Source: Escherichia phage vB_EcoP_S523
Strand: one strand, 5' to 3'
Length of the DNA: 39,825 nt
Sequence record: MH031343
Below, one piece after another: positions 1 to 39,825 of the stretch (its first letter is position 1; each line of letters opens with the position of its first letter). The position numbers were made by a program, and so were the translations under genes. Below the pieces are notes generated by a model. It made no database searches. It saw only the letters and a program-made list of their open reading frames with translations, and was not told where the DNA came from.

Positions 1-19
1 ATGACCTTTAGTTTAACTC

Positions 20-42
20 TTTCGCAATAGTGAGTCGTATTA
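20..42 (-). promoter_or_regulatory. phage RNAP promoter (phi1.3-like), TAATACGACTCACTATTGCGAAA
   Basis: Promoter core downstream of gene 1.2, upstream (across the window wrap) of ligase gene 1.3. Confidence 0.7.
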
Positions 43-312
43 CTTCCAGTGCTTCAGGTCTGCGTGTACCTTGCGGAGCCACTCAGTCTGTGCATTGCAG
101 CGAACGTCTGCGTCGTCTTGTTCGAAACGCTCAGAGGTTAACACTACGCCATTCCGCAAGACCACTCGAAGAGTCTCACCGGATACCCAGCGCATCCTAG
201 CATAGTTATTATAGCGGAAAGTCTCAGTGACCACACGGACATCATGGTCTTCTTTGAGTCGTTCGATAGCGTCTTTGTATGCTATTAAGTTACCACTGTA
301 TAAGCGACCCAT
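40..312 (-). CDS. gene 1.2-like protein (T7 gp1.2 is a host dGTPase inhibitor), 90 aa
   Basis: ORF starts MGRLYSGNL and ends HWK, like recalled T7 gp1.2; sits between gene 1.1 and the promoter preceding ligase; ATG at 310-312 with GGAGG upstream. Confidence 0.6.
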   Translation of the reverse strand: MGRLYSGNLIAYKDAIERLKEDHDVRVVTETFRYNNYARMRWVSGETLRVVLRNGVVLTSERFEQDDADVRCNAQTEWLRKVHADLKHWK

Positions 313-461
313 TAGAGTGCCTCCTTCCAGTTGCGTTTCTCAGAGTTGCCACGCTGTGTCTTGTGGCGTTTCTTCATGCGGTCTTTACGTTCCTGCCATT
401 CAGTACCGTGTTCATTGATTACGTTGTTGCGCTTAGTGGTTGGTTCAAAGTTGGTACGCAT
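312..461 (-). CDS. gene 1.1-like small basic protein, 49 aa
   Basis: Hand-translated minus-strand ORF MRTNFEPTTKRNNVINEHGTEWQERKDRMKKRHKTQRGNSEKRNWKEAL; AAGGA RBS; stop overlaps gene 1.2 start as TAATG; position matches T7 gene 1.1. Confidence 0.45.
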   Translation of the reverse strand: MRTNFEPTTKRNNVINEHGTEWQERKDRMKKRHKTQRGNSEKRNWKEAL

Positions 462-543
462 AATGTTGTTTCCTTCTGTGTAGTTAATGACAGTTAATCA
501 TGAAGGCCACCAAATGTGATGACCTTGAGTTTAACTTTCAGTG

Positions 544-566
544 TTTCCCATTAGTGAGTCGTATTG
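544..566 (-). promoter_or_regulatory. phage RNAP promoter (phi1.1B-like), CAATACGACTCACTAATGGGAAA
   Basis: Promoter core overlapping the stop codon of the 185-aa ORF, upstream of gene 1.1. Confidence 0.75.
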
Positions 567-1108
567 TCTGCAACCTTACGTGCAATCTCAATGCGACCCG
601 CTACATCTTTCTTATAATAGGTGAACTCTTTGCGCTCACCGTCAGTGCACGTCTGTGTCAGCAGGTAGCGGTCGGCTTGTTCAACCCAATGTAGACATGT
701 GACTTGCTTACCACATGAGCCGAGACCCAGCTTGAACTCAGTGCGCTTCCATCCAGCATCCGGGATGTGAGCAGTAAACTTGATAGACGTGATGTCACTG
801 TGTGTATACTCACGGATAATCTTCTTGGCTTCTTTAAGTTCCTTGCGGTACTCCACTGCCTCAGCGCGTAGACGCTCAATGAGTTCTCGTTGGTTCGACA
901 TGTCATATTGTTGTTCGAACTCTAAGGTACGGATTCGACCAGCTAGTTCCTGCTTATCTCGCCATCCATCTTCAAGTCTCTCTTTGAGTGCATGAGAGTT
1001 CTTCTCTTCTTTGATTAGCTTAGTGAGAAATACCTTTGAACGATTATAGTATGTTGCTGCAAGAATGGTTGATACGAGAGCGCCTACTGAAGTGATTAAA
1101 GTAAACAT
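551..1108 (-). CDS. hypothetical membrane-anchored protein, 185 aa (N-terminal TM helix, charged coiled-coil, Cys-containing C-terminal domain)
   Basis: ORF with ATG at 1106-1108 preceded by AAGAGGAAA RBS; hydrophobic N-terminus MFTLITSVGALVSTILAATYY; flanked by two phage promoters; no counterpart on the canonical T7 map between genes 1 and 1.1. Confidence 0.6.
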   Translation of the reverse strand: MFTLITSVGALVSTILAATYYNRSKVFLTKLIKEEKNSHALKERLEDGWRDKQELAGRIRTLEFEQQYDMSNQRELIERLRAEAVEYRKELKEAKKIIREYTHSDITSIKFTAHIPDAGWKRTEFKLGLGSCGKQVTCLHWVEQADRYLLTQTCTDGERKEFTYYKKDVAGRIEIARKVADNTTH

Positions 1109-1168
1109 GATTGTGTTTCCTCTTAAAGTTAGAACTTAAAGTTATCTTAAAGTTTAGGAAGCCCGAAG

Positions 1169-1191
1169 GCTCCCAATAGTGAGTCGTATTA
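1169..1191 (-). promoter_or_regulatory. phage RNAP promoter (phi1.1A-like), TAATACGACTCACTATTGGGAGC
   Basis: Promoter core immediately after the RNAP gene stop; transcript would begin GGGAGCCUUCGGGCUUCC (UUCG tetraloop hairpin). Confidence 0.8.
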
Positions 1192-1198
1192 GATTCCG

Positions 1199-3850
1199 TT
1201 AGGCAAACGCAAAGTCTGACTTAAGGATTTCTTGCAGGTCCAGAGAGCCTTTAGCTGGCATCTCAGGCATCTTATCAAGCTGTGTCTCGTGCAACTGGTC
1301 AGCAAATTGCTCATAGAAGTCTGCAAGTACATCGTTCTCTTCGTAAGTGTTGACCATCGTTTCACGCACTGCTTTAAACAGGTTGCCAGCAGCAGCCGGG
1401 ATAGTGCCAAAGGAGTCATGAATCAGTGCGAAGGATTCCACACCGTAGACCTCATTGGAGCGCACTACAGTCATTCTCAGGTGGCTTCCATCCATTGAGT
1501 GGACAAAGTTAGGTGCGATGCCTGACTCCTGTTTACGAGCGTCAATCCCGCTATCTTTGTTGGTGTTCACGGTAGGCTGTAGACGAATCTGGCCTAAGAA
1601 CATCAGGTTCAAGCGGGTCTGTACTGGCTTCTTATATTCCTGCCAGACCGGGAAGCCATCAGGAGTAACCCAATGTACCGCACAGCGCTTACGGAGGACT
1701 TCTTTAGTCTTTTTGTCCTTGACTTCAGCAGCCAGAAGTTTAGCAGCAGACTTCAACCAGTTCATCGCTTCAACCGCTGCGACAACTGTGACCGTTACCG
1801 ATTCCCAAATCAGTTTAGCCATGTAGCCAGCCGCTTGGTTCGGTTGAGTGAACATCAAGCCCTTGCCATCGTCGATAGCTGGCTGAATGGTGTCCTCAAG
1901 AACTTGGTCACGGAATCCGTACTCTTTGGAACCATAAGCCAACGTCATGACCGAACGCTTAGTGACCTTGCGAGTCACACCATAGGCCAGCCACTGACCA
2001 GCTAACTCTTTCGTTCCCAGCTTGAGCTTCTCAGTGATTTCACCAGTGTCCTTGTTTGTCACGGTTTCCACTTCGTTATCAGTGCCGTTGACTACCGCTT
2101 CGCGGAGCATCTCGTTCACACGTTCCGCAACGATTCGGTAGATGTCCTGTACTTCCTTGCTCGGCAGCAGGTTAACCGCACGACCACCAACCTCATCACG
2201 GAGCATCGCGGAGAAGTGCTGAATACCGGAGCAGCTACCATCGAACGCCAGCGGAAGAGAGCAGTTGTAGTTCATCCCGTGGTGTTGCACACCTGCATAC
2301 TCAAAGCAGAATGCGAGGAAGCAGAACGGAGAGTCTTGCTCGGCCCACCAAGTGTTAGCAATCGGGTCAGCCGCAACGCTCATGATGTTCTCATGGTTGT
2401 CATCAATGAACTTGATGCGTTCTGCAAAGTCCACCTTGTCCACGCCAGCAGTGTTAGCACCGTGAATCTTCAGCCAGTAATACCCATCGACACCGATTGG
2501 TTTACCTTTAGCGAGCGTTAACAGACCCTTGGTCATGTCGTTGCCCTGCGGGTTGAACATCGGGACCGCGTACACACGACCGCGCCAGTCCATATTCATC
2601 GGGAACCAGATAGCTTTAAACTGTGCGAACTTATTGGCCTGACCTAACATGAACTCCATGCTCATGCGGCGTGACACTCGTGCCTTCTCTTTGCGGTAGA
2701 TTGCGGAGGCCGCTTTCTTCCATGCTTTGAGTGATGCCTCGTTGGTGTCGATGTCATCAGGTTTGACCGGGAGTTCTCCACGTTCCAGAGCGGGTACATC
2801 TTCAACCGGGCAATGCTTCCAGTTCACAATCTCGTTGACCACTGCCAGAACCTTCTTGTTAATCTTCCAAGGAGTATTCTGTGCGATGTTCACCGCCTTG
2901 TAGACTTCAGGCATATACACATCGTTGTAACGCTCAAGTCCCTTCTTGCTACCAGTGCGAACCAGAGAGAGAGGCTTGCGACCCGCAGCCCAATAGCCAC
3001 CACCGACCGGAGAAGTCCAAGGCTTCGGAGGGACCACGCAAGGCTGATACATCGGAGCGATTGCAGCCAGAGCGCCAGCACGTTTGGATAGCAGGTCTAC
3101 ATATTGTTCTGTTAACTGGATGTACTCGCCATCCTTCTCGATGTTCCCAGCGAACGGGCGGTGTAACTCAACGAGACCAGTAGACCCGATGAGCAGTTCC
3201 AACATGCGCACACCAACGTGAATTGATTCTTCAGGTGTCCATGTAGTCCACTTGGTTTGCAGTTGACCAGCATCAAGCATCTTGCCCTCTACGGCTTGCA
3301 TGAATGCTTTCTTGTAGACGATACCAACGCGCTTGTTCAGTGCCTCCTGTACGTGATTCTTAAAGTGCTTCGCTTCTTCGTCACGGATGCGACCAAAACG
3401 CAGTTCATCCTCAATACTGCGACCAATCTTAGTGGCGACCGATTGCAGGTTGGTGAACTCTTCTTTCGTCAAGCAAGCGAGTGTGACCTTAAGTGTGATG
3501 AATGCAGCAGCTTCAGGTGCAACCTTCTGTACCAGATTGTAGGCTACTGGACGCTTACCACGCTTCGCTTCCACTTCAGTGAACCAAGTGTTCCACGCCT
3601 CGATGAACTTTGGTGCGAGGGATGACAGGAGCGGTTTAGCTACTGCGTTATCACCGAACTCACCCGCTTTGATTTGACGTTCCATTGCCTTTAAGAAACG
3701 TTTCTCACCCTCGGTGTGCGCCTCGTGTTCCAACTCAAGCTGCGTAGCTGCAAGCTGTGCGCCGTAATGGTCAGCCAGAATGTTGTACGGCTGGATTGCA
3801 TTAGCGATGTCAGAGAAGTCATTCTTTGGTGCGTTGATTACGTTAGTCAT
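1199..3850 (-). CDS. single-subunit DNA-directed RNA polymerase (T7 gp1 family), 883 aa
   Basis: Same length as T7 RNAP; conserved motifs (DGSCSGIQHFSAMLRDEVGG, palm/fingers, C-terminal FAFA); position after kinase gene 0.7. Confidence 0.97.
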   Translation of the reverse strand: MTNVINAPKNDFSDIANAIQPYNILADHYGAQLAATQLELEHEAHTEGEKRFLKAMERQIKAGEFGDNAVAKPLLSSLAPKFIEAWNTWFTEVEAKRGKRPVAYNLVQKVAPEAAAFITLKVTLACLTKEEFTNLQSVATKIGRSIEDELRFGRIRDEEAKHFKNHVQEALNKRVGIVYKKAFMQAVEGKMLDAGQLQTKWTTWTPEESIHVGVRMLELLIGSTGLVELHRPFAGNIEKDGEYIQLTEQYVDLLSKRAGALAAIAPMYQPCVVPPKPWTSPVGGGYWAAGRKPLSLVRTGSKKGLERYNDVYMPEVYKAVNIAQNTPWKINKKVLAVVNEIVNWKHCPVEDVPALERGELPVKPDDIDTNEASLKAWKKAASAIYRKEKARVSRRMSMEFMLGQANKFAQFKAIWFPMNMDWRGRVYAVPMFNPQGNDMTKGLLTLAKGKPIGVDGYYWLKIHGANTAGVDKVDFAERIKFIDDNHENIMSVAADPIANTWWAEQDSPFCFLAFCFEYAGVQHHGMNYNCSLPLAFDGSCSGIQHFSAMLRDEVGGRAVNLLPSKEVQDIYRIVAERVNEMLREAVVNGTDNEVETVTNKDTGEITEKLKLGTKELAGQWLAYGVTRKVTKRSVMTLAYGSKEYGFRDQVLEDTIQPAIDDGKGLMFTQPNQAAGYMAKLIWESVTVTVVAAVEAMNWLKSAAKLLAAEVKDKKTKEVLRKRCAVHWVTPDGFPVWQEYKKPVQTRLNLMFLGQIRLQPTVNTNKDSGIDARKQESGIAPNFVHSMDGSHLRMTVVRSNEVYGVESFALIHDSFGTIPAAAGNLFKAVRETMVNTYEENDVLADFYEQFADQLHETQLDKMPEMPAKGSLDLQEILKSDFAFA

Positions 3851-3923: not shown

Positions 3924-5027
3924 TCAGCCTTGCAGTTGTGCGTCAAGTAACTTGTCAATGTTCAGAGGTAGACCCGCTTGGATTGCTAGGCGGTCCCCTA
4001 GTTGCCACTTGAGGCCGTTCACTTGTTCAACCTTGCGGAACGTTGCGTTACCATTATGCAACCATGCGTAATGCCATGCAGACCCCATGAACATCTCGGC
4101 ACGGCGTTCATTTCGGTCAATAGCTCTACGCTCAAGACGCCCTTTGACAAACTGTTGCATTCCTTCCGCTGCATGTTTAGCACGTAACTTACGGTTACGC
4201 TTACGGCGTTTCATTGCTGCCTTGCGGTTAACCTGAAAGGTTCCGTTAGGGTCACACTTAGCCTTACGATTGCGGCACCGTTCAATGATGCGCTCGTTAG
4301 CTATCGCCTCGACCTCGGCAATCAGTGCTTCAGGGTCCAGAGGGAAACCGTCCTCACGTTCACGGTCATGAGAGAAACTAACCGGGTCAGTGATGTAAGC
4401 CACATCGTTCTCATCGAACATGATGTTCCCACTGTGCATGTCGAAAGATGCAATACCGTGGAAGAACTCACGAATCATCTTGCATGTCTCAATGAACTCC
4501 TTGCTAACATACTGTGCGTACCAATCGGCATCGCCTCCAGAGCACTCAATGAACTCCTGCGCAGCACTTGCATACTTTGCGTGCACATCGTTAGCGTAGC
4601 GGTCACAGCTTTGTAAGCGGTCCAGTACGACCGTATAGCAACCTGCATGTCGTGCTACGTGATAGACGTTAGGGATACCCGCTCGGCCTTGGTGCATCCT
4701 ACAGAACGCAGTGTACGCAGCGCCTGAATCCTCTTTCTTAAAGCCAACCTTGATGACTCGGCCCGGTAACAGTTCATGTGAGTAGGCCGCACTAAAGTGA
4801 CCATTACCCAACATGCGGAAACCTGCATCACGCATTAGTGCACCCAAGGTGTGCCAATAGTCCTGATACTCAAGACCCTGCGACCCATCTGTGTCGTTGC
4901 CATCGCTTGTCTCACCGTTCACGATGTCAGCAGCCAGTGCAACCAGAAGAGGCTGGCGCTTGTCCAGTTCACTAATCGGGAGTGACTTGATGATTGCCAG
5001 ACGTGCCTGAATGTCGGTGTAGTTCAT
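3924..5027 (-). CDS. gp0.7-like serine/threonine protein kinase / host transcription shut-off protein, 367 aa
   Basis: Kinase core resembling T7 gp0.7 (GNGHFSAAYSHELLPGRVIKVGFKKEDSGAAYTAFCRM, FDMHSGNIMF); located between gene 0.3 and gene 1. Confidence 0.85.
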   Translation of the reverse strand: MNYTDIQARLAIIKSLPISELDKRQPLLVALAADIVNGETSDGNDTDGSQGLEYQDYWHTLGALMRDAGFRMLGNGHFSAAYSHELLPGRVIKVGFKKEDSGAAYTAFCRMHQGRAGIPNVYHVARHAGCYTVVLDRLQSCDRYANDVHAKYASAAQEFIECSGGDADWYAQYVSKEFIETCKMIREFFHGIASFDMHSGNIMFDENDVAYITDPVSFSHDREREDGFPLDPEALIAEVEAIANERIIERCRNRKAKCDPNGTFQVNRKAAMKRRKRNRKLRAKHAAEGMQQFVKGRLERRAIDRNERRAEMFMGSAWHYAWLHNGNATFRKVEQVNGLKWQLGDRLAIQAGLPLNIDKLLDAQLQG

Positions 5028-5789: not shown

Positions 5790-5973
5790 GATGATTTCCT
5801 TAGTTGCAGTGATTATCATAAAGGCTTCTCTTTCGAGTCACCTTGAGTTAATCGCTGTTGTCGTCGTCATCTCAAGAGTGCTTATTGTCCAAATTGTTAA
5901 AGAGCTTTAAGTGCAGGTTTGTTAGCACCGAGTCACTTTCAGTGTGTGACCTCACAAGAACGCTATGTCGTAC

Positions 5974-6003
5974 ATCTTACATCTTGTTGCTACTGCATGT
6001 CAA
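5974..6003 (-). promoter_or_regulatory. sigma-70-type early promoter, TTGACA-N18-TAAGAT
   Basis: Minus-strand -35 TTGACA (6003..5998) and -10 TAAGAT (5979..5974); same hexamers as recalled T7 A2. Confidence 0.6.
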
Positions 6004-6068
6004 CCACTTTGTTTCTCACCGTGACACCTCATGGTGTTTCAGAGGGCGACCAGTTGTTGACGACTGCT

Positions 6069-6097
6069 ATACTACGTTATTGCTTTCGTTGAGTCAA
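6069..6097 (-). promoter_or_regulatory. sigma-70-type early promoter, TTGACT-N17-TAGTAT
   Basis: Minus-strand -35 TTGACT (6097..6092), 17-nt spacer, -10 TAGTAT (6074..6069). Confidence 0.6.
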
Positions 6098-6204
6098 CCA
6101 CTTTCGTATGTCTGGTTGATGACTACTTGAGACCCTTCAGCCTTACCAGATAACTCTAGGTCTTGTCTGGTAGTTGGTAGCGTTGTGTCTCTCAACTGGT
6201 AGCC

Positions 6205-6233
6205 ATTAGAACATAGTTGTTTCTTAGAGTCAA
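6205..6233 (-). promoter_or_regulatory. sigma-70-type early promoter, TTGACT-N17-TCTAAT
   Basis: Minus-strand -35 TTGACT (6233..6228), 17-nt spacer, -10 TCTAAT (6210..6205); upstream-most of three. Confidence 0.5.
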
Positions 6234-6319
6234 CCCCTTAGTTAGACTTTAAGTTATCTTTAAGTGGTCTTTAAGTTAGCACTATAAGGAAGGGATTAGT
6301 AATAAGACTATAAACAACC

Positions 6320-6342
6320 ATTCTCAATAGTGAGTCGTATAA
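6320..6342 (-). promoter_or_regulatory. phage RNAP promoter (phiOL-like, left end), TTATACGACTCACTATTGAGAAT
   Basis: Match to T7 promoter core ACGACTCACTAT on minus strand, upstream of the host-type early promoters. Confidence 0.55.
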
Positions 6343-6479
6343 AGGCTATTGACTATAAGCCAGCTTTAAGGCACTATAAGCACTCAGTCAATTCTACTTG
6401 TCTCTCTCATTACTCAGAGACTGCTAAACAGAGTAAGATAGTGATTCTCTTAGTGACGTAGCCTACTGGTCACTGATAA

Positions 6480-6930
6480 ACATAAGGCACCGACTGAAGG
6501 TTAACATAAGGATAGCCAGCCATAAGGATAGACATAAGGTGTTAACTCTAAGAGGTCATAAGGTGTTAACTCTAGGGTCACTTACAGATAGGGACACAGA
6601 GAGGTCCACATATAGTATCATTAAGTCACTCTAAGCCCTATATCTAGTGGTAACACCTAGAGTTAACCCAATGTCACACATAAGGATTGACATTAAGTAA
6701 ACCATAAGTTACCATAGGGGCGCTCTCTTTGAGTGGACTGAAGGAGGCCATAGGGGGGGAAACACTTTGTATGAACTATGAGATACCCTCTCAGATTTTT
6801 CTGTAGGATTCTTAAAGGGGGTACATCAAGTCTCATAAGGTTAACCACAGAGGCTCTATCATAAGGTGAGACTACGTGAGAGACCCTAAGAGACCCTGTA
6901 GACCATAGAGAGTGGTACATAAGGGGTTAC
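6480..6930. repeat. terminal-region short repeat array (about 12 copies of CATAAGG-like motif; minus-strand CCTTATG) spanning the inferred concatemer junction
   Basis: Recurrent cataagg / ccatagg / tcataaggtgttaactcta motifs between phiOL and gene 19.5; analogous to the CCTAAAG repeats of the T7 left end. Confidence 0.55.
6771..6783 (-). other. inferred mature genome left end (minus strand begins TCTCATAGTTCAT...); terminal repeat collapsed to one copy
   Basis: Reverse complement of 6771..6783 is TCTCATAGTTCAT, followed by CCCCCCC-TATGG; resembles the recalled T7/T3 genome start TCTCA(C/T)AG... and lies between the last late gene and phiOL. Confidence 0.4.
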
Positions 6931-7016
6931 TCTTAGAGTTGACTTCTTACAGTGATTATAGGGAAGATGTATATCGACCATAATCACTAAGAGCGCACTA
7001 AGCGCCGATGAGCAGT

Positions 7017-7172
7017 CTAAGGAACACAAGTGAGTAGAGAACAAAGCAGAGTCTCCAGTTCACCGATGTGTTCAGCACTAGATGCGAGACCAATGGAAGC
7101 AGCAAGTACAACGAGAAATTTGTAAGTCACTCGATGCGTTGCCAGTGTCTTGAGCACGGATAGTAAGCGCAT
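7017..7172 (-). CDS. gene 19.5-like small protein, 51 aa
   Basis: Hand-translated ORF MRLLSVLKTLATHRVTYKFLVVLAASIGLASSAEHIGELETLLCSLLTCVP with AAGGAGG RBS; resembles recalled T7 gp19.5 (HRVTY.FLVVL); downstream of phiOR. Confidence 0.5.
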   Translation of the reverse strand: MRLLSVLKTLATHRVTYKFLVVLAASIGLASSAEHIGELETLLCSLLTCVP

Positions 7173-7329
7173 AGAGCGTCCTCCTTGTTATACTTGATGG
7201 TTGCACTGTTAGTAGGGATGTAATTACTATTACCATCATCCCTCACTGTAAGGGTCTCTAAGAGTTAGTCACTAAGTATGCACTTTGCATATGCAGTCTT
7301 TAAGTGTCTTTAAGTTGTCTTAGGGTGCC

Positions 7330-7352
7330 CTTCCCAATAGTGAGTCGTATTA
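7330..7352 (-). promoter_or_regulatory. phage RNAP promoter (phiOR-like, right end), TAATACGACTCACTATTGGGAAG
   Basis: Strong promoter match located after terminase gene 19, directing transcription across the genome junction. Confidence 0.75.
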
Positions 7353-7439
7353 ATTTCTTCATGTATATCAGTAAGTTACTCAACGGTAACGTAGCGGTAC
7401 TAAGTGCTTACCTATGCACCTTTCCCGCATACTTATCTA

Positions 7440-9197
7440 TTACCACTCAATGAAGCAGCTAGAGTCTCCATCGTCCTCGTAGTAGATGTCTACGCCACCA
7501 GCCTCGTAGCTATGGATAGCATCACCACCAATGGTCTGTTTCTCCATGTGGTGTTCAAGGAACTCAAGGGTCATAGCTTCCTCACCTACCTTAGAGTCCA
7601 CCTGCATCCCTTCACGAAGGAACTCGATACCCAATGCGATAGCATCAAGACGGTCATCGTGTGCCACAGCGCCCTTCTCACGAGTCATACGGGTCATCTG
7701 ATAGAACGCACTGTAGCGAACATCATGTTTCCCATCAAGGTCACGAGCGGTCTGGTAGTCCTCACGGATTACTTCGTCACGGATGATAAGGCGGTGTGCA
7801 CCCATCAACGGTTCGATAGTATCGCAGATACGCATCTCCTTCATGCCACGAGCGCGAATCTCTTCTAAGGCACACTTGTGGTGCTTCAGGAGAACCGGAG
7901 AGAATACCTTACCAAACATACCATCACCGAAGTTACTCTCGTGTACGACCGTCTGTACCTTCCACTGCTTGGCCTTCTTAGCGAGCTTCTCTAGGGTAGG
8001 GTCATCGTAGCCACCACGGAACCCACCGACTTCCATCAAGTAGATGTAGCCGTTCAGGGTGTAGAGGACCGCGTAACCCGTTTCATCCTTACCACGACCA
8101 GAGGGGTCAATGACGAGAATCTTTTGCTGGTACTCAGCGGTCTTAGAGGAACACACATGGAAGCTGTGAATGTCGTCACCCTTCAGACCCACGTTAGGAA
8201 GTTCCTCATTGCGGTTCTGACGGTTCGGCAACCACTGGTAGGACAATGGGGCACGTTCAGTGTCCACTGCGCACACGATAGCGTCACGGAGCCTCAGAGG
8301 GTACTTCTCGGCATCACTCAGGTTAGGGTTGAGCATGAACTGTAACGTGTAACCAGCTTTACCATATTCGAGTTCACGTTCACGGAGGTCATCCATATCG
8401 AATCGAACAGGGTCAGTAGGTTGTCCACGAAGTAACTCATAGCCATCATCATACTCGGCCTTAAGCATAGGAGCCAATCGGTCGCCATAGTAGAGAGCCT
8501 CAGCATCATTACGTGGATACTGTGCTGGCCAGATTACTGTGCTATACCCTTTGTTATCCTCAAGTTCCTTATAGAGAGTCATCTCGGTTTGAGGTGTCCC
8601 AAGGTAGATAACACGAGAGGTAGGCAACGGCTTAAGCAACGCAGCAAACTCAGTTACCAACGTCCAGAGCTTCTCACGGGCAGAACTCGTAGAACTGTTG
8701 CCGGGAACCTCAACGTCATCCGCAATGATAATATCAGCACGGCTACCAGTCAACTGACCAGTAATACCTACAGACTTCACAGAAGGTGAGTGGTCGGGTT
8801 TCGCCAAGCCTACGTCAAAGCTAATCACAGAGTCACGCTGTCCCGGTCGAGGTTTCAACTCAGCGAGGAATGGCAGCAGGTCAATGATGTTCTTAATGAA
8901 GATGGAGTTAGCATCCGCACGTTCCTTAGAGGCAGACACGATGAGCACCTTAAGTTGAGGGTCACGCCATAGCACCCACACAACGAACGCACAGGTGATA
9001 AAGGACTTGCCGATACCACGGAACGCCTGAAGGATAAACTTCTTGTGGTCGCCATTAGCGAGTGTACGTGCCATATCAATCTGACACTTGGTTGGTTTAG
9101 GTAAGTTCAGAGCCTTCCATAAGACGAACAGGAAGGCCACGAAGTCACCCTTAAGTTGCGCCACGATGAGCGCATTCTTGTTTGCTTGAGTAGACAT
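7440..9197 (-). CDS. terminase large subunit (gp19), 585 aa
   Basis: Near-colinear with T7 gp19 ([54 protein letters not shown]). Confidence 0.95.
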
Positions 9198-9212: not shown

Positions 9213-9770
9213 TTACTCGGCAGATTTCTCTAAGGCAGCAATGCGCTTCTCAAGAGCCTTGATAGTGTCGGTCTTAGACACAGCCCCGTCGATGTTACTA
9301 GGTTGGAACATAACGGAAGCGCTCTTCCCTTCGCTGTCCACGAACTGTGTACCAAATGCACTATCAGACGCAGAAAGCGTTGCATTGACTAATGAAGACA
9401 CACCACCTTCCGGTTCAGGGTCAGCACCAGTCCACTCTTTGTATACGTCGATTCGAACCATACCGAGCCGCTCAGTGCTTTGCTCATTCAGGAACACCGT
9501 CATGAACCCGCTACCCGGTTTAGACTCGACGGAGCCGCCCCAAGTGGACATAAGGGTCTCGAACGTAGCATGTTGCTCAGTGGTGCCATCACTCAGTTGG
9601 ATAACGTATTCAACCTTAGAGTAGCCATCAACCTTAACCATCTCCGAAGCTGGGATGTCGATACGCCCAACACGAATGCCAATATTGTTGCGGTCATACA
9701 CATCACGACTGTCTGGTGAGCGACCATTGATGGTCCAGAGTGTGCGGGTTCTTGAGTTTGTAGTAGCCAT
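9213..9770 (-). CDS. hypothetical protein, 185 aa, between the spanin genes and the terminase large subunit gene
   Basis: ORF with ATG at 9768-9770 and AAGGAG RBS, packed tightly between gene 18.5 and gene 19; no TM segment; C-terminal heptad-like KALEKRIAALEK; no T7 counterpart at this position. Confidence 0.6.
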   Translation of the reverse strand: MATTNSRTRTLWTINGRSPDSRDVYDRNNIGIRVGRIDIPASEMVKVDGYSKVEYVIQLSDGTTEQHATFETLMSTWGGSVESKPGSGFMTVFLNEQSTERLGMVRIDVYKEWTGADPEPEGGVSSLVNATLSASDSAFGTQFVDSEGKSASVMFQPSNIDGAVSKTDTIKALEKRIAALEKSAE

Positions 9771-10313: not shown

Positions 10314-10583
10314 TCAGTTAAGTGTGTACTTCTCATCTTCAGTGAGGCCATCAGCACCAACTAGGTTCTGGTACTCTTCGAGTCCATCTGCCAGTCCACC
10401 AAGGATGTTACGGTCTGGTTGTAACTTGGAGACTTGGAACTTATGGCGCTCTAACAGTTTCCCGATTGCGTTGTACAATTGAGGTGTACGGCGTTCATCG
10501 TTCTGCAAGTCAGCAAGCATACGTTGAGCCATCTCAGTGTCCAGCATCTCAAGGAATTGAATTAAGGACTTATCATTAGACAT
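10314..10583 (-). CDS. terminase small subunit (gp18), 89 aa
   Basis: MSNDKSLIQFLEMLDT...; same length as T7 gp18. Confidence 0.85.
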   Translation of the reverse strand: MSNDKSLIQFLEMLDTEMAQRMLADLQNDERRTPQLYNAIGKLLERHKFQVSKLQPDRNILGGLADGLEEYQNLVGADGLTEDEKYTLN

Positions 10584-10829: not shown

Positions 10830-12854
10830 TTATTGGGTTTGAACTAAGATTCTCGTAGGTACAGAACTACGGTCAGCATCATTACGGAAAGTTCTCCCGT
10901 TGTTGGAGATTGTGAACTGTAACCACCCGCCCATAGAAGAGATGTAGTATGCACCGTTATCACCAATCTGAACAGGGTTCCAGCGTCCTCGAGTTTGAAT
11001 CCAGATGGTTCTCCATCGGACATCCTGTGAGAGACCTACGGATACCCCACCACCAGCGGAACCTTTCCACACCTCAGCCCAGCCAGCATTCTTACGAATG
11101 TATCGACCGTCAGCGGCACCTTGGGTTAAACGACCATTAACTAGGTTGTTCACCTCTCTTTTGTTATAGGCATGTTCACCAAGGCGTTTGTTGACCCAAC
11201 CGTCGATGTAAGAATCATACTTCTTGATGTATAAGTTACCATCTGCCGCAATCTGCCACCCCTTACTACTTGCCAATGCGCCTTGAATAGTCATTGTAAG
11301 GGCATGTTCATTACCGCCATCCCCCTTGAGTTGGATGATACCATCGTGGAAGTTGTTGCTACCCTTGGATACCATACCGATGGAGAATGCCGCCGGATAA
11401 CCATTAGAGCGTCTACCATATTGTTTAATCATAGGGTAATACACGTTGCCATCCTGATTTCCGGGGAGGCTTTGCGAGTAGGGGGCATTGTTATTCAACT
11501 GGTTTGCGAACCCTCCTGACCCAAAAGTTGACTCAGTGTAGAATCGCTCATCAGCCCTGATATACTTAGATACTCGAAGATAACCATCCATAGATACGTT
11601 CTGGTAGAACCGTGAATCATGGTGAGAGTGGAATCCACCGTAGAAATCGTGGCGTCCGTTCCCATTGGAGCGACCATCAGGCCACTTAGATGGGTCCGTG
11701 TTTGTAAACACATAGTAGTCCATGCGTTTTGGTCCGGCCTGAATCCACTGTTCCCAAACAGTCTCCTTACTGCCCTCCCCACGCCATTGGGTCCACACCA
11801 AGTCAACTGGCTGTGTACCAGCACCTTTTGCATCATTTCGCAACGTAAAGTCCTTACCAGATACTTTGCGCTTGAAGTAAACATCAGGAGCCTCAACCCT
11901 GTCGATAGCCTCAGCTAGTGAGTTCATATTACCCAACTTGTCAGCCTCAGCCTTAGCACGGTCAGCCTCACCTTTGGAGCGGTTTGCCTCAGTGTTGGCT
12001 CGGTCAGCATGTCCCTTAGCGGTCTCAACATGTGCAGCAGCTTTGGCAACCTCAGCAGCAGCTTTAGTCACTTCTCCGGCAGCACGATTGGCCTCATCAC
12101 GGGCACGATTGGCCTCAGAGTTGGAACGGTCAGCTTGCTTCTTGGCCTCAGCGACACTTGCGGTCATACTATCAGCATAACCTTTAGCTCGGTTAGCCTC
12201 AGAGTTGGAACGGTCAGCTTGCTTCTTGGACTCAACTGCTTGTTGCGTAGAGACACCTGCCTGTTGCGTTGAGCGGTCAGCTTCACGTTGAGCACGGTTG
12301 GCCTCATCACGAGAACGGTTTGCTTCCTTATTGGCCCTGTCAGCGTGTTCGTTAGCTTTTGTTACGGCATTCCATGCAGAGGATTCACGCTCTTTAACCT
12401 GCTTTAAAGGAACGGCATCATAGTCACTTGTGGCATACGCCAAGTTAACAATCTTACGACCACGAGCATCTAAGTGACCGTCATTGTTGACACCAATGGT
12501 ATCCGCAGTGAGGTCTCGTGCTTCTTCAGCAACATGCAGTGTTTGAATCTGCGAGATGTTCAGGTCATATGCACGGAGGATTGAGCCATCAGCAAGGTCA
12601 ACCAGACGATCAGTAGCCGAAGTGAATCGACGAATCTCAATCATCTGGTAGCCATCAGCGGCAGTCCACGCACGGGTAGTAGTAATTTGAGTCTTACTGG
12701 TAAAACGATAGTCCTGATTGAGAACCAGTTCTTTACGGTCTTTACCAATAAGTGTCACTTGGATGAACTTACGTGCCAGATAATCAAAGGTAATCGTGAA
12801 ATTCACGGCACCATTCAGCGGGTAAGTCATCACAGTACGAATCTTGTTAGCCAT
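10830..12854 (-). CDS. tail fiber protein (gp17), 674 aa, with extended shaft and distal domain
   Basis: N-terminal about 150 aa and C-terminal about 90 aa match T7 gp17 (FEYLARKF..VTLIG, GSAGGGVSV..SQD); central ADRxNxEANR repeats; about 120 aa longer than T7 gp17 (553 aa). Confidence 0.9.
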   Translation of the reverse strand: MANKIRTVMTYPLNGAVNFTITFDYLARKFIQVTLIGKDRKELVLNQDYRFTSKTQITTTRAWTAADGYQMIEIRRFTSATDRLVDLADGSILRAYDLNISQIQTLHVAEEARDLTADTIGVNNDGHLDARGRKIVNLAYATSDYDAVPLKQVKERESSAWNAVTKANEHADRANKEANRSRDEANRAQREADRSTQQAGVSTQQAVESKKQADRSNSEANRAKGYADSMTASVAEAKKQADRSNSEANRARDEANRAAGEVTKAAAEVAKAAAHVETAKGHADRANTEANRSKGEADRAKAEADKLGNMNSLAEAIDRVEAPDVYFKRKVSGKDFTLRNDAKGAGTQPVDLVWTQWRGEGSKETVWEQWIQAGPKRMDYYVFTNTDPSKWPDGRSNGNGRHDFYGGFHSHHDSRFYQNVSMDGYLRVSKYIRADERFYTESTFGSGGFANQLNNNAPYSQSLPGNQDGNVYYPMIKQYGRRSNGYPAAFSIGMVSKGSNNFHDGIIQLKGDGGNEHALTMTIQGALASSKGWQIAADGNLYIKKYDSYIDGWVNKRLGEHAYNKREVNNLVNGRLTQGAADGRYIRKNAGWAEVWKGSAGGGVSVGLSQDVRWRTIWIQTRGRWNPVQIGDNGAYYISSMGGWLQFTISNNGRTFRNDADRSSVPTRILVQTQ
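12112..12229 (-). repeat. in-frame direct repeat inside tail fiber shaft region (34-nt identical copies at 12112..12145 and 12196..12229, 84 nt apart)
   Basis: gcctcagagttggaacggtcagcttgcttcttgg occurs twice; encodes repeated KKQADRSNSEANRA. Confidence 0.7.
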
Positions 12855-29360: not shown

Positions 29361-29566
29361 ACGCAACCTCCCATCTTCTTCAGGAATCGGACACCAGAGC
29401 CTGTTACTTCCCAAGCGCCAGCATTACGCCCATCGACTGATAGGCAAGAGATATGACCACGACTCGCAGCCTCAGCCACCAGTGACGCATTGTTGCGCAC
29501 ATAGTTCGACTGAAAGGTCTTAGGGCAGCTTTTGATAGCCGCCAGTACACGTAGATATTCACCCAT
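29357..29566 (-). CDS. gp5.7-like protein, 69 aa
   Basis: Same length as T7 gp5.7; position between gp5.5 and gene 6; overlaps gene 6 start by 4 nt. Confidence 0.6.
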   Translation of the reverse strand: MGEYLRVLAAIKSCPKTFQSNYVRNNASLVAEAASRGHISCLSVDGRNAGAWEVTGSGVRFLKKMGGCV

Positions 29567-29850
29567 TACTTCACCTCACGGATAGTTGCTGGAGAAACCT
29601 TCAGACCATCTTCCGGTAACTCGGTACGAATGAACTCTCGCATACCCTGTTTGGCGGCAAATGAGATAGCACCCTCGACACCATGAGTCAGCGCTTGTAC
29701 CAGAAGTTCACGGTCACGGGGACTAATCTTCTCACCAGCCGCAGCCTTCTTAGCCAAGTGAACCAGTTCCTCAGTGAATCCTTCCTCCATCTCGGAGGTG
29801 ATTACAGCGGTGACTTCGAATGATACTTTAAAGCGTTTAGTAATAGCCAT
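29566..29850 (-). CDS. gp5.5-like protein (T7 gp5.5 binds host H-NS), 94 aa
   Basis: MAITKRFKVSFEVTA... resembles T7 gp5.5 N-terminus; position downstream of the HNH gene. Confidence 0.65.
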   Translation of the reverse strand: MAITKRFKVSFEVTAVITSEMEEGFTEELVHLAKKAAAGEKISPRDRELLVQALTHGVEGAISFAAKQGMREFIRTELPEDGLKVSPATIREVK

Positions 29851-30172
29851 GATATTTCTCCTTTGCTTCTAATGTGATGACCTTCCGCTCTCGGTTGGTC
29901 TTGATTACGTGTTCCCGCTTGGGGATACACTGTAGGTGCTCTACGTTACAGCACCCACGGTTTAGGCATAGATGGTCTATCTCATACCCTTCTGGTATCT
30001 TTCCGTGGACGTTCTCCCACACGAATCGGTGGAACATGAAAGCAACCTTCTCACCCTTGCGGGACGAGCCTATGCTATACCGGAAGTACCCATCTTTGTT
30101 CCTCTTATGGGAGACGCAGACGATACAGCCAGTCGGCATAGTGTGAAACCTAAGCGTAGCAACGCCTCCCAT
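29837..30172 (-). CDS. HNH family endonuclease (homing-endonuclease-like; same position as T7 gene 5.3), 111 aa
   Basis: His-Me finger signature FHRFVWENVHGKIPEGYEIDHLCLNRGCCNVEHLQ with flanking Cys pairs; strong RBS AAGGAGGT; wedged between DNA polymerase and gene 5.5 with a 14-nt overlap. Confidence 0.8.
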   Translation of the reverse strand: MGGVATLRFHTMPTGCIVCVSHKRNKDGYFRYSIGSSRKGEKVAFMFHRFVWENVHGKIPEGYEIDHLCLNRGCCNVEHLQCIPKREHVIKTNRERKVITLEAKEKYHGYY

Positions 30173-32758: not shown

Positions 32759-32767
32759 ATTTCATAC

Positions 32768-32816
32768 AAAAGTTAATCACCAAGGCCACCCGTAGATGAC
32801 CTTTAGTTTAACTCTT
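32768..32816 (-). promoter_or_regulatory. conserved ~48-nt structured element (putative RNase III processing site, R4.7-like); copy B
   Basis: aaaagttaatcaccaaggccacccgtagatgacctttagtttaactc; near-identical to the element at 39776..39825; imperfect long hairpin with internal bulges. Confidence 0.45.
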
Positions 32817-32817
32817 A

Positions 32818-32890
32818 CTCTTCACACTTGTCAGCAAGCATGTTGCCCTCAGAACTCTTCACACTTGTCAGCAAGCATGTTGCCCTCAGA
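32818..32890 (-). repeat. 37-bp tandem duplication (2 copies: 32818..32853 and 32855..32890) spanning the gene 4.5 stop codon
   Basis: ctcttcacacttgtcagcaagcatgttgccctcaga repeated back-to-back; the upstream copy encodes the last 12 codons of the gene 4.5-like ORF, the downstream copy is untranslated. Confidence 0.85.
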
Positions 32891-33691: not shown

Positions 33692-35467
<1,776 letters not shown>

Positions 35468-36121: not shown

Positions 36122-36564
36122 TTCTTCTTCACCTCTTTAAATTTATCGAATGGAACATCCTTAGAAGGCTCTTTAAGCCAATCAACTGGAATTAATTTGT
36201 CAGCAAACAGAATGCCATGCTTCTCACACCACTCGCCATAACTGGTCGGAGACCCTTTGTACAGCTTGGAGCGACTAGAAGAGAACACGATGCGCACATC
36301 AAGTTCAGGATACTGTTCACGGATAAGTAAGTGCTTCTTACGGTCGTCACTGTCCCACAGACCTTTGGTTTCCACAAAGATGCCATTAGGTAACAGGAAG
36401 TCCGGGCAATAGGTATGGTTGCTTGCAGGAACAACATATGGTACACGCCAACGCTCGTAGTCGAACTTAATGTTCTTCCCTTCGAGTTGTTTGCTTACCT
36501 TATCCTCCAAGCCAGAGCGAAAGGCACCCACACGAGTGCCTCGACCTGCATAGCCCTTAGCCAT
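36118..36564 (-). CDS. endonuclease I, Holliday-junction resolvase (gp3), 148 aa
   Basis: Colinear with T7 gp3 (VGAFRSGLEDKVSKQLE, PDFLLPNGIFVETKGLW). Confidence 0.9.
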   Translation of the reverse strand: MAKGYAGRGTRVGAFRSGLEDKVSKQLEGKNIKFDYERWRVPYVVPASNHTYCPDFLLPNGIFVETKGLWDSDDRKKHLLIREQYPELDVRIVFSSSRSKLYKGSPTSYGEWCEKHGILFADKLIPVDWLKEPSKDVPFDKFKEVKKK

Positions 36565-37262
36565 TAGAAATCACCGTCTTCGTCTTCATCGTCCTCTTCT
36601 GGTTCTTCATTCCAGCCAGAGTCGTTTTGAGGCTTGCGGGTCTGTGCTTCATCAGCTTCGTAGCCGTCTTCTTCGATTTCATCACCCCAATCGTCATCAC
36701 CACCACCGAACTCGACCAGCTTAATCAGCATCACGGAATCCAGTTGCAGCTTAACGGAAGCACCTGCCACAGCAGACCAACCGTAAGGGAACAGAGTGTA
36801 TTTAATCTTCAGTTCAGAGCCACCAGAGATAGCTGGACGCTCACCACGGATGCGCTTACCTTTGGAGTCCACGATAGCCAAGTCGATTGGTTTGTTCTCA
36901 CCAGTCTTCTTGTCAGTGAACGAGCCGTAGCACTTGAAGTTGAACGTAGTGGTTCCATCTTCGTTATCCATGAAAGGCATGTCGCCAACATATGGCTTCA
37001 GCGGTTTCTTACCCTTGACAACTTTCGGCGGGTTCGCTTCGTACTCTTCGAGTCGAGCAGCGTAGTCCGTCTCATGGGCTTCGACAATCTCGTCAATCAT
37101 CTTCTGACAGCGAGGGTCGTCGTTGGATACAGTCAGTGATACTTTGTAGACACCACGTTCGTTCTTGAAGTCACCGCTACCGAAGTCCGGCTTTGCCAGA
37201 TAGCAGTAAGGTTCAGCAATACCACGAGCGGAAGTGAATACTTTACGTTTTGCGAATGCCAT
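36564..37262 (-). CDS. single-stranded DNA-binding protein (gp2.5), 232 aa
   Basis: Same length as T7 gp2.5; conserved N-terminus and acidic C-terminal tail ending DGDF. Confidence 0.92.
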   Translation of the reverse strand: MAFAKRKVFTSARGIAEPYCYLAKPDFGSGDFKNERGVYKVSLTVSNDDPRCQKMIDEIVEAHETDYAARLEEYEANPPKVVKGKKPLKPYVGDMPFMDNEDGTTTFNFKCYGSFTDKKTGENKPIDLAIVDSKGKRIRGERPAISGGSELKIKYTLFPYGWSAVAGASVKLQLDSVMLIKLVEFGGGDDDWGDEIEEDGYEADEAQTRKPQNDSGWNEEPEEDDEDEDGDF

Positions 37263-37310
37263 AATGATTCTCCTTTAGTTTCTGAAAGTTAAAAGTGGGA
37301 AACGTTAGTG

Positions 37311-37333
37311 TCTCCCATTAGTGAGTCCTATTA
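37311..37333 (-). promoter_or_regulatory. phage RNAP promoter (phi2.5-like), TAATAGGACTCACTAATGGGAGA
   Basis: Promoter core overlapping the gene 2 stop, upstream of gene 2.5. Confidence 0.7.
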
Positions 37334-37522
37334 AACCTTACGGTCTGGACGGATGCGTGTTACAGCGAAGCCAGCAGGGACGTATTGCCACTCAGCTAAC
37401 TCATTGGCCTCTTCAAGAGACGTAGCGAACACGGGTACTTCGAACGATTGGCCTTGGCCTTCTACCGTAGCGAAGAACTTCTTGTCACCGTTTACCAGTG
37501 ACCCTTTATTCAGAGTGCTCAT
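37331..37522 (-). CDS. gp2-like inhibitor of host RNA polymerase, 63 aa
   Basis: Size (T7 gp2 64 aa) and conserved [20 protein letters not shown] motif. Confidence 0.8.
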
Positions 37523-37617
37523 TGTCCTCTCTCCTTCCAGTGATTATATAATTCAAGGTAGTCGGTGTTGCCTGTCTTTTCAAACATACGCTCACACCAT
37601 TCACTAGGCTTTTCCAT
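37519..37617 (-). CDS. gene 1.8-like small protein, 32 aa
   Basis: Hand-translated [32 protein letters not shown]; GAGGTGG RBS; stop overlaps gene 2 ATG (ATGA). Confidence 0.3.
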
Positions 37618-37697
37618 ATTCCACCTCTATAGCCCAAAACATGAGGAACAGGCAAGCACCCATTCCAACACAAATTAGCAGGAAATATAAGATGTCA

Positions 37698-38069
37698 TTA
37701 AGCATAGCACTTACCTTTGTGTTTCTCGTACAGTTCACCATAGAACCCAGCTTTCGCCATGTCCTTCTCTAAGAATGCTAGTTCAGATTTCTTACCAGCA
37801 CGTAGGCGATACTTAAGGATGTTCCCTAAGCAGTACCCTTTGAACTGTTCACGGGTCATCGACCGGGCAATCACTTCGATAGCCTCAATGTCGTCAAACA
37901 ACATATAGTGGCTCGGAGTACGAACATCATCTATATCTTGTGGTTTGTCTGACTTAGTGCAACTACATACACCAGCGCCATTCCAGATTGTACACTCACT
38001 GGTGTGCTTTGTTTTGCAGGTATGCGGGTAGCGGTCATCTTTCTCTAAACATGCTATGCAACCAGACAT
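37698..38069 (-). CDS. gp1.7-like protein (T7 gp1.7 is a nucleotide kinase), short form, 123 aa
   Basis: Conserved CIACLEKDDRYPHTC and PSHYMLFDDIEAIEVIARSMT..FKGYC.GNILKYRLRAGKK relative to recalled T7 gp1.7, but lacking about 70 central residues. Confidence 0.75.
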   Translation of the reverse strand: MSGCIACLEKDDRYPHTCKTKHTSECTIWNGAGVCSCTKSDKPQDIDDVRTPSHYMLFDDIEAIEVIARSMTREQFKGYCLGNILKYRLRAGKKSELAFLEKDMAKAGFYGELYEKHKGKCYA

Positions 38070-38332
38070 TAGAACACCTCCTTGATACGAGCAATGACCA
38101 GACGGACTTTAGGGAAACGGGTGACAAGAACCGGAATGAAAGGCCGGGAGCCAGTGGTCGCTTCTTTATATAAGCCAGTGGTGATTACAGCGTGAACACG
38201 AGGTGCTAACTCAATGGTCGAGCCAAGCACTTTAGGAATGACAGCATGTTTCTCGGAGGCAAGAACCGTCGAGCGGTCGGAACCACGAGCAGAAAAGATA
38301 CCGTTTGATTTGTTGAAGTGTAGTCGTAACAT
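38069..38332 (-). CDS. gene 1.6-like protein, 87 aa
   Basis: ATG at 38330-38332 lies 8 nt downstream of GGAGG in the promoter-initiated leader; the track ORF start at 38347 lies upstream of the predicted transcription start. Confidence 0.55.
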   Translation of the reverse strand: MLRLHFNKSNGIFSARGSDRSTVLASEKHAVIPKVLGSTIELAPRVHAVITTGLYKEATTGSRPFIPVLVTRFPKVRLVIARIKEVF

Positions 38333-38339
38333 AAGTGTT

Positions 38340-38362
38340 TCCTCCATAGGTGAGTCGTATTA
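38340..38362 (-). promoter_or_regulatory. variant phage RNAP promoter (phi1.6-like), TAATACGACTCACCTATGGAGGA
   Basis: Perfect -17 to -5 match, divergent -4 to +4; initiating region doubles as the RBS for gene 1.6. Confidence 0.55.
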
Positions 38363-38440
38363 GCAATCAGGCCAGCAGTTGTCGTCAATGATAACGAAGG
38401 CAAACGTGGCAAAGATAGCAGCAGCAATTAGAAATAGCAT
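38360..38440 (-). CDS. small hydrophobic peptide (gene 1.5 position), 26 aa
   Basis: Hand-translated MLFLIAAAIFATFAFVIIDDNCWPDC; its TAA stop is the first bases of the phi1.6 promoter. Confidence 0.3.
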   Translation of the reverse strand: MLFLIAAAIFATFAFVIIDDNCWPDC

Positions 38441-38447
38441 GAGGTTG

Positions 38448-38470
38448 TTCCTCCATAGTGAGTCTAATAG
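38448..38470 (-). promoter_or_regulatory. variant phage RNAP promoter (phi1.5-like), CTATTAGACTCACTATGGAGGAA
   Basis: Partial promoter core with the same TATGGAGGA initiating region as the phi1.6 site. Confidence 0.4.
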
Positions 38471-38503
38471 AAACACGAAAAGGCCAGACCCGAAAGTCTG
38501 ACC
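38470..38503 (-). terminator. intrinsic terminator (TE-like early terminator): 8-bp stem, 6-nt loop, U-rich tail
   Basis: Minus-strand RNA GGUCAGAC-UUUCGG-GUCUGGCC-UUUUCGUGUUUCU; located after the ligase gene region, where T7 TE lies. Confidence 0.6.
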
Positions 38504-38510
38504 AGTGTTA

Positions 38511-38693
38511 CTACATGTTGGCGTGAAGATATGCCTTTACCTCGGATATGCTTCTACACTCTTTCTGTGTGAAGTAATCCCACTTGCGTCCATAAGAGGC
38601 TGGGTCGTCTCCCTCAGACCACTTCAGGATGTGGAATACCTGTAAGTGTGGGTGTTGCCATACCTTCCAAATGCCTTGGTCAAAGATTATCAT
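38511..38693 (-). CDS. hypothetical protein, 60 aa, immediately downstream of ligase
   Basis: ORF MIIFDQGIWKVWQ...; start overlaps ligase stop (TAATG); lies before the TE-like terminator. Confidence 0.4.
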   Translation of the reverse strand: MIIFDQGIWKVWQHPHLQVFHILKWSEGDDPASYGRKWDYFTQKECRSISEVKAYLHANM

Positions 38694-39739
38694 TACATCT
38701 TCTCCGTTGGGTTATCTTCAGTACCACGGAACATAACGAACGATGGGTGACGCAGAGAACCATCAGGAGTTTCCTCCATGTAGGCAACCTGACACGCCCA
38801 ATTCATATAAGGCGCTGGCTTCATGCCATCCTCAGTGGTCTCCCACTTGGTGTACGCTTCGGTAAACTCATCCATCAGAGCGCGAGAGATGTTTGTGGCG
38901 TTAACTACACGACCACTCTCAAGAAGCACTTCGAATCCGATAATCTTACCTTCGTTAGCCAAGCCGGGAGTTCCCCAGCAGTATCCAATGACCTCACCAT
39001 CAGCTTCACTCTCAGGCTTCATCTTCCACCAGCCAGACTTCTTACCACGCTTGTAGACTTCCAGCGGGTCTTTGACAACCAGACCTTCATGACCATCGGC
39101 GCGAGCTTTCTCGTAGAGTTCCTGAAGTTCTACCATGTCGTAGACTTCTTTGGCCTCAGAGAGTTCCCAAGTGATTTCCGGGAAGTGTTCACTAAGAACC
39201 GGAATGAGGGAACGCACATGCTCTTGCATCAGGAGGGACATAACGCCGTACTCTTTGCCTTCTACCATATCGTGATACGGCATAGCAGCATACAAGACAA
39301 CCTTCAGGCGCTGTGGGTCTAACTCAAACGGCTGTTTGTTCTTCTTCCACTCTTCATGGAAGTATTCGCTGGTGGAGTGCACGAAGTTTGTGGCCTTGAG
39401 CCACTTGGTTCTCAGTAGGCCAGACCCTGTGTTGAAGTCTACGCCTTTGACCATGAGTTCGCCATCCAGCATAAAGCCATCAGGGAAAATCCAGCGGTCA
39501 TCTTTGAGAACATTAGCCCAGCGTTGGTCGAACCCATTAAGGTGCTCAAGCGCGGGGATGGTCTTGGAGACACGGGACAGCCACAGGCAGTCAGCCGTAT
39601 TGTCAACCACGATGTTACCACGTACACCATCATGCTTAGTGTCAGCAATCAGGTAGCCAGCCTTGTCGAGTGCTTTCTTAATGGCAGACTCAACGTAGGA
39701 TACTGCTTTGAACGGCGAAGTCTTAAATGTGATTTCCAT
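38693..39739 (-). CDS. ATP-dependent DNA ligase (gp1.3), 348 aa
   Basis: Catalytic lysine motif KHDGVRG (T7: KYDGVRG) and conserved PFKAVSYVESAIKKALD, GSLRHPSFVMFRGTEDNP..EKM. Confidence 0.95.
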   Translation of the reverse strand: MEITFKTSPFKAVSYVESAIKKALDKAGYLIADTKHDGVRGNIVVDNTADCLWLSRVSKTIPALEHLNGFDQRWANVLKDDRWIFPDGFMLDGELMVKGVDFNTGSGLLRTKWLKATNFVHSTSEYFHEEWKKNKQPFELDPQRLKVVLYAAMPYHDMVEGKEYGVMSLLMQEHVRSLIPVLSEHFPEITWELSEAKEVYDMVELQELYEKARADGHEGLVVKDPLEVYKRGKKSGWWKMKPESEADGEVIGYCWGTPGLANEGKIIGFEVLLESGRVVNATNISRALMDEFTEAYTKWETTEDGMKPAPYMNWACQVAYMEETPDGSLRHPSFVMFRGTEDNPTEKM

Positions 39740-39775
39740 GATGGAACTCCTTTAGTGTGTCGGTTAATAAGTAAT

Positions 39776-39825
39776 CAAAAGTTAATCACAAAGGCCACCC
39801 GTGAAGATGACCTTTAGTTTAACTC
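39776..39825 (-). promoter_or_regulatory. conserved ~50-nt structured element (putative RNase III processing site, R1.3-like); copy A, continuing into window start
   Basis: aaaagttaatcacaaaggccacccgtgaagatgacctttagtttaactc; last 19 nt identical to window positions 1..19; lies between the phi1.3-like promoter and the ligase RBS. Confidence 0.45.

Follow-up and report, generated by a model that had tools for sequence, protein, structure and literature searches.

The window analyzed here is the whole 39,825-nt sequence of Escherichia phage vB_EcoP_S523 (S523; sequence record MH031343), and the elements in question are its two ends, where a short identical sequence and the surrounding gene order indicate how the record relates to the natural DNA of the phage. 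All long open reading frames (ORFs) are located on the minus strand, as are 12 of 12 phage promoters that match TAATACGACTCACTATTGGGA with at most three mismatches (0 expected). The boundary of the window cuts no gene and falls in an intergenic region that contains a promoter and a hairpin. In the direction of transcription, gene 1.2 and promoter phi1.3 lie at the start of the window, and the ATP-dependent DNA ligase gene 1.3 is encountered first at its other end (Table 1). The initial annotation had proposed that the gene order wraps from gene 1.2 into the ligase gene, and this is borne out by the Pfam matches of both genes and by the contiguity of the region in related phages (see below).

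Direct comparison confirmed that the first and last 19 nt of the window are identical, as had been claimed earlier. The same sequence, ATGACCTTTAGTTTAACTC, is present at both ends, and 19 nt is the longest exact suffix/prefix match when all lengths up to 200 are considered. The 19-mer pattern occurred in none of 100 dinucleotide-preserving shuffles. Without the overlap, the unique length is 39,806 bp. The 19-mer is also found inside the window, exactly at 32796–32814 and with two mismatches at 519–537. An exhaustive list of exact repeats shows that the copy at the join (39805–39825 continued by 20–21) and the copy near 32.8 kb have 23 nt in common, AGATGACCTTTAGTTTAACTCTT, beyond which their flanks diverge. 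Since the overlap sits inside a dispersed repeat, it is by itself no proof of circularity. As evidence for a circle, the overlap is therefore weaker than the initial annotation had assumed: the identity stands, but the support for closure comes from synteny with relatives. The possibility raised there of a chance repeat with different flanking sequence called for evidence from outside the window, and the join is upheld by the alignments of relatives. More generally, a short end overlap can fall within a dispersed repeat and should not be counted as proof of a closed circle on its own.

Read on the minus strand, the 19-mer (GAGUUAAACUAAAGGUCAU) is the 5' arm of a hairpin located after promoter phi1.3 (42 to 22) and before the start of the ligase gene. 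The internal copies are the 5' arms of two further hairpins, upstream of genes 4.7 and 1.1. The three hairpins lie at the positions of R1.3, R4.7 and R1.1 of phage T7, and an alignment with T7 and the S523 relatives BA14 (EU734171) and FE44 (KF700371) shows that they have the core AAGGTC...GTGGCCTT in common. In T7 (NC_001604), the hairpins occupy the same places relative to phi1.1, phi1.3 and phi4.7 and to genes 1.1, 1.3 and 4.7. Unlike T7, which belongs to a different genus and has a 160-bp repeat, S523 has two hairpin arms that are identical over 23 nt. The hairpins upstream of genes 1.3, 4.7 and 1.1 are predicted RNase III-type processing sites; the site names and the RNase III assignment are carried over from established T7 knowledge, which we take to apply here. 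The RNase III sites of T7, as well as its fixed ends, whose direct repeat has short repeat arrays on either side, were reportedly described by Dunn and Studier in 1983. A search of the whole window with Rfam gathering thresholds returned 0 families, Rfam having no model for these hairpin sites. The hairpin z-scores given in Table 1 were computed against shuffled sequences.

The contiguity of the join was assessed with a 1,381-nt query consisting of the last 700 nt and the first 700 nt of the window minus the overlap, which was searched against a phage collection (August 2025). The query aligned in one piece over 98–100% of its length, with 89–95% identity, in about 20 listed relatives, and at least 80% of it was covered in 31 records. 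The features annotated under these matches are 1.05, 1.1, 1.2, two promoters and 1.3. In a blastn comparison with FE44, about 135 nt surrounding the join aligned gap-free with a single mismatch. The order phi1.3, hairpin, ligase is common to T7, BA14 and FE44, and a 39-mer spanning the join has an exact match in an IMG/VR contig. Judged from these alignments, the join is a contiguous junction with no sequence missing and none inserted. It is very unlikely that the window is an incomplete linear contig whose ends lie in different copies of the RNase III-arm repeat, with the sequence between them missing. In favour of it, three or four sites with differing flanks carry the 19-mer, and de Bruijn contigs typically stop at repeats; however, all BA14 genes are present in order, the join is gap-free against FE44 and the 31 relatives, and phi1.3, the hairpin and the ligase start codon are spaced as in FE44 to within 1 nt.

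The gene content was compared with BA14 using all 50 of its coding sequences as tblastn queries. The matches are on the minus strand and follow in descending order, with a wrap from 43 to 39739; the sole exception is the HNH endonuclease, which is absent at its BA14 position. When the sequence is rotated to position 6783 and given a second repeat copy (see below), it is 40,000 bp long and collinear with BA14 1–39,816 in eight ordered blocks, with an aligned identity of about 82–95% per block and roughly 90% overall (summed from the alignment blocks). That the re-linearized length is exactly 40,000 bp is taken as a coincidence. The gene order from 0.3 to 19.5, the promoter consensus and the arrangement of phi1.3, R1.3 and ligase are the same in BA14, Kvp1 (FJ194439) and FE44 as in S523. 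Compared with these three records, which have natural ends, S523 is reverse-complemented, is opened between genes 1.2 and 1.3, and contains one repeat copy instead of two.

The homologue of the terminal repeat is located between the right-end and left-end unique regions (Table 1). Over its whole length it is 84–87% identical to the repeats annotated in BA14 (194 nt), Kvp1 (194 nt) and FE44 (193 nt), and all four have the same first bases, TCTCATAGTTCAT, and the same last bases, CTCTCTGTGTCCCT. BA14 and Kvp1 annotate the repeat at both ends of their genomes. Five linear records (BA14, Kvp1, FE44, JSS1 and vB_CECAV_058) have their first base aligned to position 6783 or 6782 of the window. In a multiple alignment with both ends of BA14 and Kvp1, S523 displays a continuous run from right-end unique sequence (...AAAAATCTGAGAGGGTA) through the repeat (TCTCATAGTTCAT...CTCTCTGTGTCCCT) into left-end unique sequence (ATCTGTAAG...). 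Of the 14 CCTTATG heptamers of the window, nine cluster at 6481–6924 (minus strand) and flank the repeat on either side, and phiOR, phiOL and the host-type promoters are found at the positions annotated in BA14. A 38-mer at the concatemer junction is matched in one IMG/VR contig and was not found in GTDB genomes. The initial annotation had placed the true ends, with their direct terminal repeat, inside the window. The repeat sequence is indeed present there, but in one collapsed copy only and not in both. Based on homology, the natural left end should be base 6783 on the minus strand, and the virion DNA is predicted to be about 40,000 bp long.

The same arrangement is found in CarlSpitteler (MZ501055), whose record is likewise permuted with a single repeat copy, so that gene 19, the repeat and gene 0.3 are contiguous inside it, although it is opened at a different point from S523. 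The repeat copy of CarlSpitteler is at 1030–1222 of MZ501055.1, and several other relatives have the same contiguous match.

The presence of this internal repeat bears on two other explanations of the window ends. The first, that they are real physical termini with a 19-bp direct terminal repeat, would account for the same sequence at both ends, which is the formal signature of such a repeat. Nevertheless, the RNA hairpin in which the ends are situated separates a promoter from the ligase gene and lies midway through the early and DNA-metabolism region; the 194-nt homologue of the BA14, Kvp1 and FE44 repeats is intact inside the window and flanked by right-end and left-end unique sequence; the five relatives with natural ends start at this internal site; and the 19-mer is also internal. 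This explanation is vanishingly improbable. The second, headful packaging, in which the virion DNA is truly circularly permuted and terminally redundant and the circular map is correct, is exceedingly unlikely. A circular assembly lacking a duplicated end region is what headful phages yield, but S523 is 90–94% identical to and collinear with fixed-end phages, including Kvp1, whose ends were determined experimentally. Additionally, conservation extends to genes 18 and 19 for the T7-type terminase and to the terminal repeat with its flanking CCTTATG arrays. The term circularly permuted genome, used in the initial annotation, is thus appropriate for the record but not for the virion DNA, which, by homology with fixed-end relatives, should have fixed rather than permuted ends.

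Altogether, the window is very probably a complete genome of a T7-like phage (Autographiviridae, Studiervirinae, genus Berlinvirus; BA14/Kvp1/FE44 group) in reverse-complement orientation, obtained as a circularized assembly that was opened at an arbitrary internal point. The one-piece alignment of the join in 31 relatives, the near-identity with FE44 around it and the collinearity with BA14 support the earlier view that the record is a circularized assembly and is not in natural linear coordinates.

In T7, the terminal repeat allows replicated genomes to form concatemers, which are cut at fixed sites by the terminase encoded by genes 18 and 19, and the repeat is duplicated during maturation. 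By homology, S523 probably belongs to the same type of end maturation. With a sequence of about 194 bp at both virion ends, reads from the two copies would be indistinguishable, and the replicating DNA would be concatemeric. It is established that assemblers merge such repeat copies; applied to S523, this would connect the unique sequences of the right and left ends through one repeat copy, with the merged junction at window position 6783/6784, and would make the assembly graph circular. The window would then contain a single repeat copy because the assembler merged the two ends. Short-read assemblies of T7-like phages are documented to lose terminal repeats (PMC10438801).

The circle appears to have been opened inside the 23-nt exact repeat that forms the 5' arm of the hairpins before gene 1.3 (at the join) and gene 4.7 (at 32.8 kb). 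The first 21-mer of the window corresponds to positions 3–23 of the repeat and the last 21-mer to positions 1–21, which are the final and the initial 21-nt words common to both copies, and 21 + 21 − 23 equals the 19 nt of the overlap. In a de Bruijn graph with k = 21, the repeat would have two branching nodes, and the contig may have been broken at these once its path had passed through the repeat at the gene 4.7 copy. The chance that an arbitrary cut gives a 19-nt overlap wholly within this repeat copy is 5 in 39,806. The 23-nt identity of the R1.3 and R4.7 arms would be what trapped the assembler, and the overlap itself is probably an assembly by-product with no biological role beyond that of an RNase III-site arm. 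Graphs with k = 19 or k = 20 were also considered and fit less well than k = 21, as the 19-mer would then be the middle word of the 23-nt repeat and not a branching node.

Some observations weigh against this account. The contig crosses other exact repeats of 21–37 nt unbroken, and the k = 21 reading, which is tentative, would therefore require read-based repeat resolution. The boundaries of the terminal repeat were derived from 84–87% homology and a single copy, and its exact length is estimated at 193–195 nt. Furthermore, the 23-nt repeat copy at 32.8 kb has a perfect 37-nt tandem duplication, at the 3' end of gene 4.5, as its immediate neighbour. This contact with the repeat that also contains the contig ends is suspicious and may point to a local assembly error, and the sequence may not be error-free everywhere.

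The 37-nt duplication is the longest exact repeat in the genome and changes the C-terminus of the gene 4.5 product from ...CEE* to ...CEEF*. The unit is present in one copy in BA14 and in all 27 relatives matching the region, such that the duplication is private to S523, and its junction was not found in IMG/VR or JGI metagenomes. Either an assembly artefact or a slippage event at the foot of the hairpin would explain it.

The nearest relatives of S523 are the Berlinviruses BA14, 285P, BSP161, Kvp1, FE44, PYPS50 and CarlSpitteler, with about 90–94% identity. Two 20-kb queries matched BA14, 285P, BSP161, Kvp1 and PYPS50 with 90–94% identity over 56–97% of the query. The genus guideline of the International Committee on Taxonomy of Viruses is about 70% or more nucleotide similarity. 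Membership in Berlinvirus is indicated by this level of similarity as well as by the single-subunit RNA polymerase, the conserved one-strand gene order from 0.3 to 19.5 and the promoter set. No record in the phage collection reached at least 95% identity over either 20-kb half, compared with at least 95% over the whole genome for members of the same species. Based on these comparisons, S523 may represent a separate Berlinvirus species. A protein-position index holds no identical proteins on record for the ligase, gp1.2 or the tail fibre, and searches of IMG/VR, the JGI metagenomes and GTDB genomes likewise did not recover the S523 sequence itself.

A combined possibility, which is rather doubtful, is that S523 is an undescribed Berlinvirus species (less than 95% identical to every record searched) whose 37-bp duplication is real and arose by recent replication slippage at the foot of the R4.7 hairpin. 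If so, the duplication would add one residue to gp4.5 and move the RNase III site 37 nt from the coding sequence, and an exchange of sequence among the processing sites would account for the 23-nt identity of the R1.3 and R4.7 arms.

The record is an ordinary Berlinvirus genome in a common form of assembly. The importance of these results is practical rather than conceptual; T7-type fixed ends, RNase III sites and promoters are textbook features. For annotation or synthesis, the sequence should be reverse-complemented and restarted at 6783, the 19-nt overlap dropped and a second 194-nt repeat added (about 40,000 bp). The coordinates of the features are summarized in Table 1.

Table 1. Features of the S523 window related to its ends, repeats, hairpins and replication or packaging genes.
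Feature	Position	Strand	Remarks
End overlap, start copy	1–19		ATGACCTTTAGTTTAACTC
End overlap, end copy	39807–39825		With 39805–39806 and 20–21 makes the 23-nt repeat AGATGACCTTTAGTTTAACTCTT
Second exact copy of the 23-nt repeat	32794–32816	minus	5' arm of the hairpin upstream of gene 4.7
Third, diverged copy of the 19-mer	519–537	minus	Two mismatches; 5' arm of the hairpin upstream of gene 1.1
Promoter phi1.3 (phage RNA polymerase)	22–42	minus	TAATACGACTCACTATTGCGA; position agrees with the phi1.3 annotation of BA14
Predicted RNase III-type hairpin R1.3	39777–39825, crossing the join into 20–21	minus	Between phi1.3 and ligase start; −21.7 kcal/mol, z = −4.2; aligned to T7, BA14 and FE44
Hairpin upstream of gene 4.7 (positional equivalent of T7 R4.7)	~32767–32817	minus	−21.5 kcal/mol, z = −3.8
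Hairpin upstream of gene 1.1 (positional R1.1)	~488–540	minus	−18.1 kcal/mol, z = −2.7
Gene 1.2 (dGTPase inhibitor)	312 to 40	minus	PF10922; 91% amino acid identity to BA14 gp1.2; last gene before the join in the direction of transcription
Gene 1.3 (ATP-dependent DNA ligase)	39739 to 38693	minus	PF01068 and PF17879; 82% amino acid identity to BA14 gp1.3; first gene after the join
Terminal repeat, single collapsed copy	6783 down to 6590	minus	194 nt; starts TCTCATAGTTCAT..., ends ...CTCTCTGTGTCCCT
Unique right-end region	6784–7439	minus	phiOR (7332–7352), gene 19.5 (7172–7023), CCTTATG repeats (6834–6924); runs straight into the repeat as at a concatemer junction
Unique left-end region	5790–6589	minus	CCTTATG repeats (6481–6563), phiOL (6322–6342), host-type promoters (6097–6069, 6003–5974) upstream of gene 0.3
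37-nt × 2 perfect tandem duplication	32817–32890	minus	3' end of gene 4.5; adjoins the 23-nt repeat copy (32794–32816) with no gap
Gene 1 (single-subunit RNA polymerase)	1199–3850	minus	883 residues; 98% identical to BA14 gp1 over the full length
Gene 18 (small terminase / DNA packaging protein)	10314–10583	minus	89 residues; PF11123, E = 2.5e-17; unannotated in BA14
Gene 19 (large terminase subunit)	7440–9197	minus	97% amino acid identity to BA14 gp19

Outside the regions discussed above, S523 differs from BA14 in several places. An ORF of 111 residues encoding an HNH endonuclease (PF13392, E = 1e-17) is located at 29837–30172 on the minus strand, between gene 5 (DNA polymerase) and gene 5.5, whereas the HNH gene of BA14 is found between genes 4.7 and 5, a position at which S523 has none. 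This placement resembles the turnover of mobile endonucleases. Between the ligase stop codon and gene 1.5 (38441–38692, minus strand), S523 contains about 180 nt that are extra compared to BA14; a 60-residue ORF in this stretch (38511–38693) matches phrog_6957, a family of unknown function (E = 8e-22). Most proteins are 95–100% identical to their BA14 counterparts. Lower amino acid identities are observed for gp0.7 (3924–5027; 75%), the ligase (38693–39739; 82%), gp5.5 (29566–29850; 55%) and the tail fibre gp17 (10830–12854; 68%), all encoded on the minus strand. The divergence is thus mosaic and suggests recombinational exchange of the gp0.7, ligase, gp5.5 and gp17 modules.

The tail-fibre gene 17 contains a 34-nt exact direct repeat, at 12112–12145 and 12196–12229 (84 nt apart), with tandem-repeat matches of period 21 nearby (11940–12065). 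A conserved ORF of 185 residues (9213–9770, minus strand) is located between genes 18.5 and 19. No Pfam family matched its product, which does match phrog_20446 (function unknown) and shares 94% identity with a BA14 protein carrying the annotation 'unknown product'.

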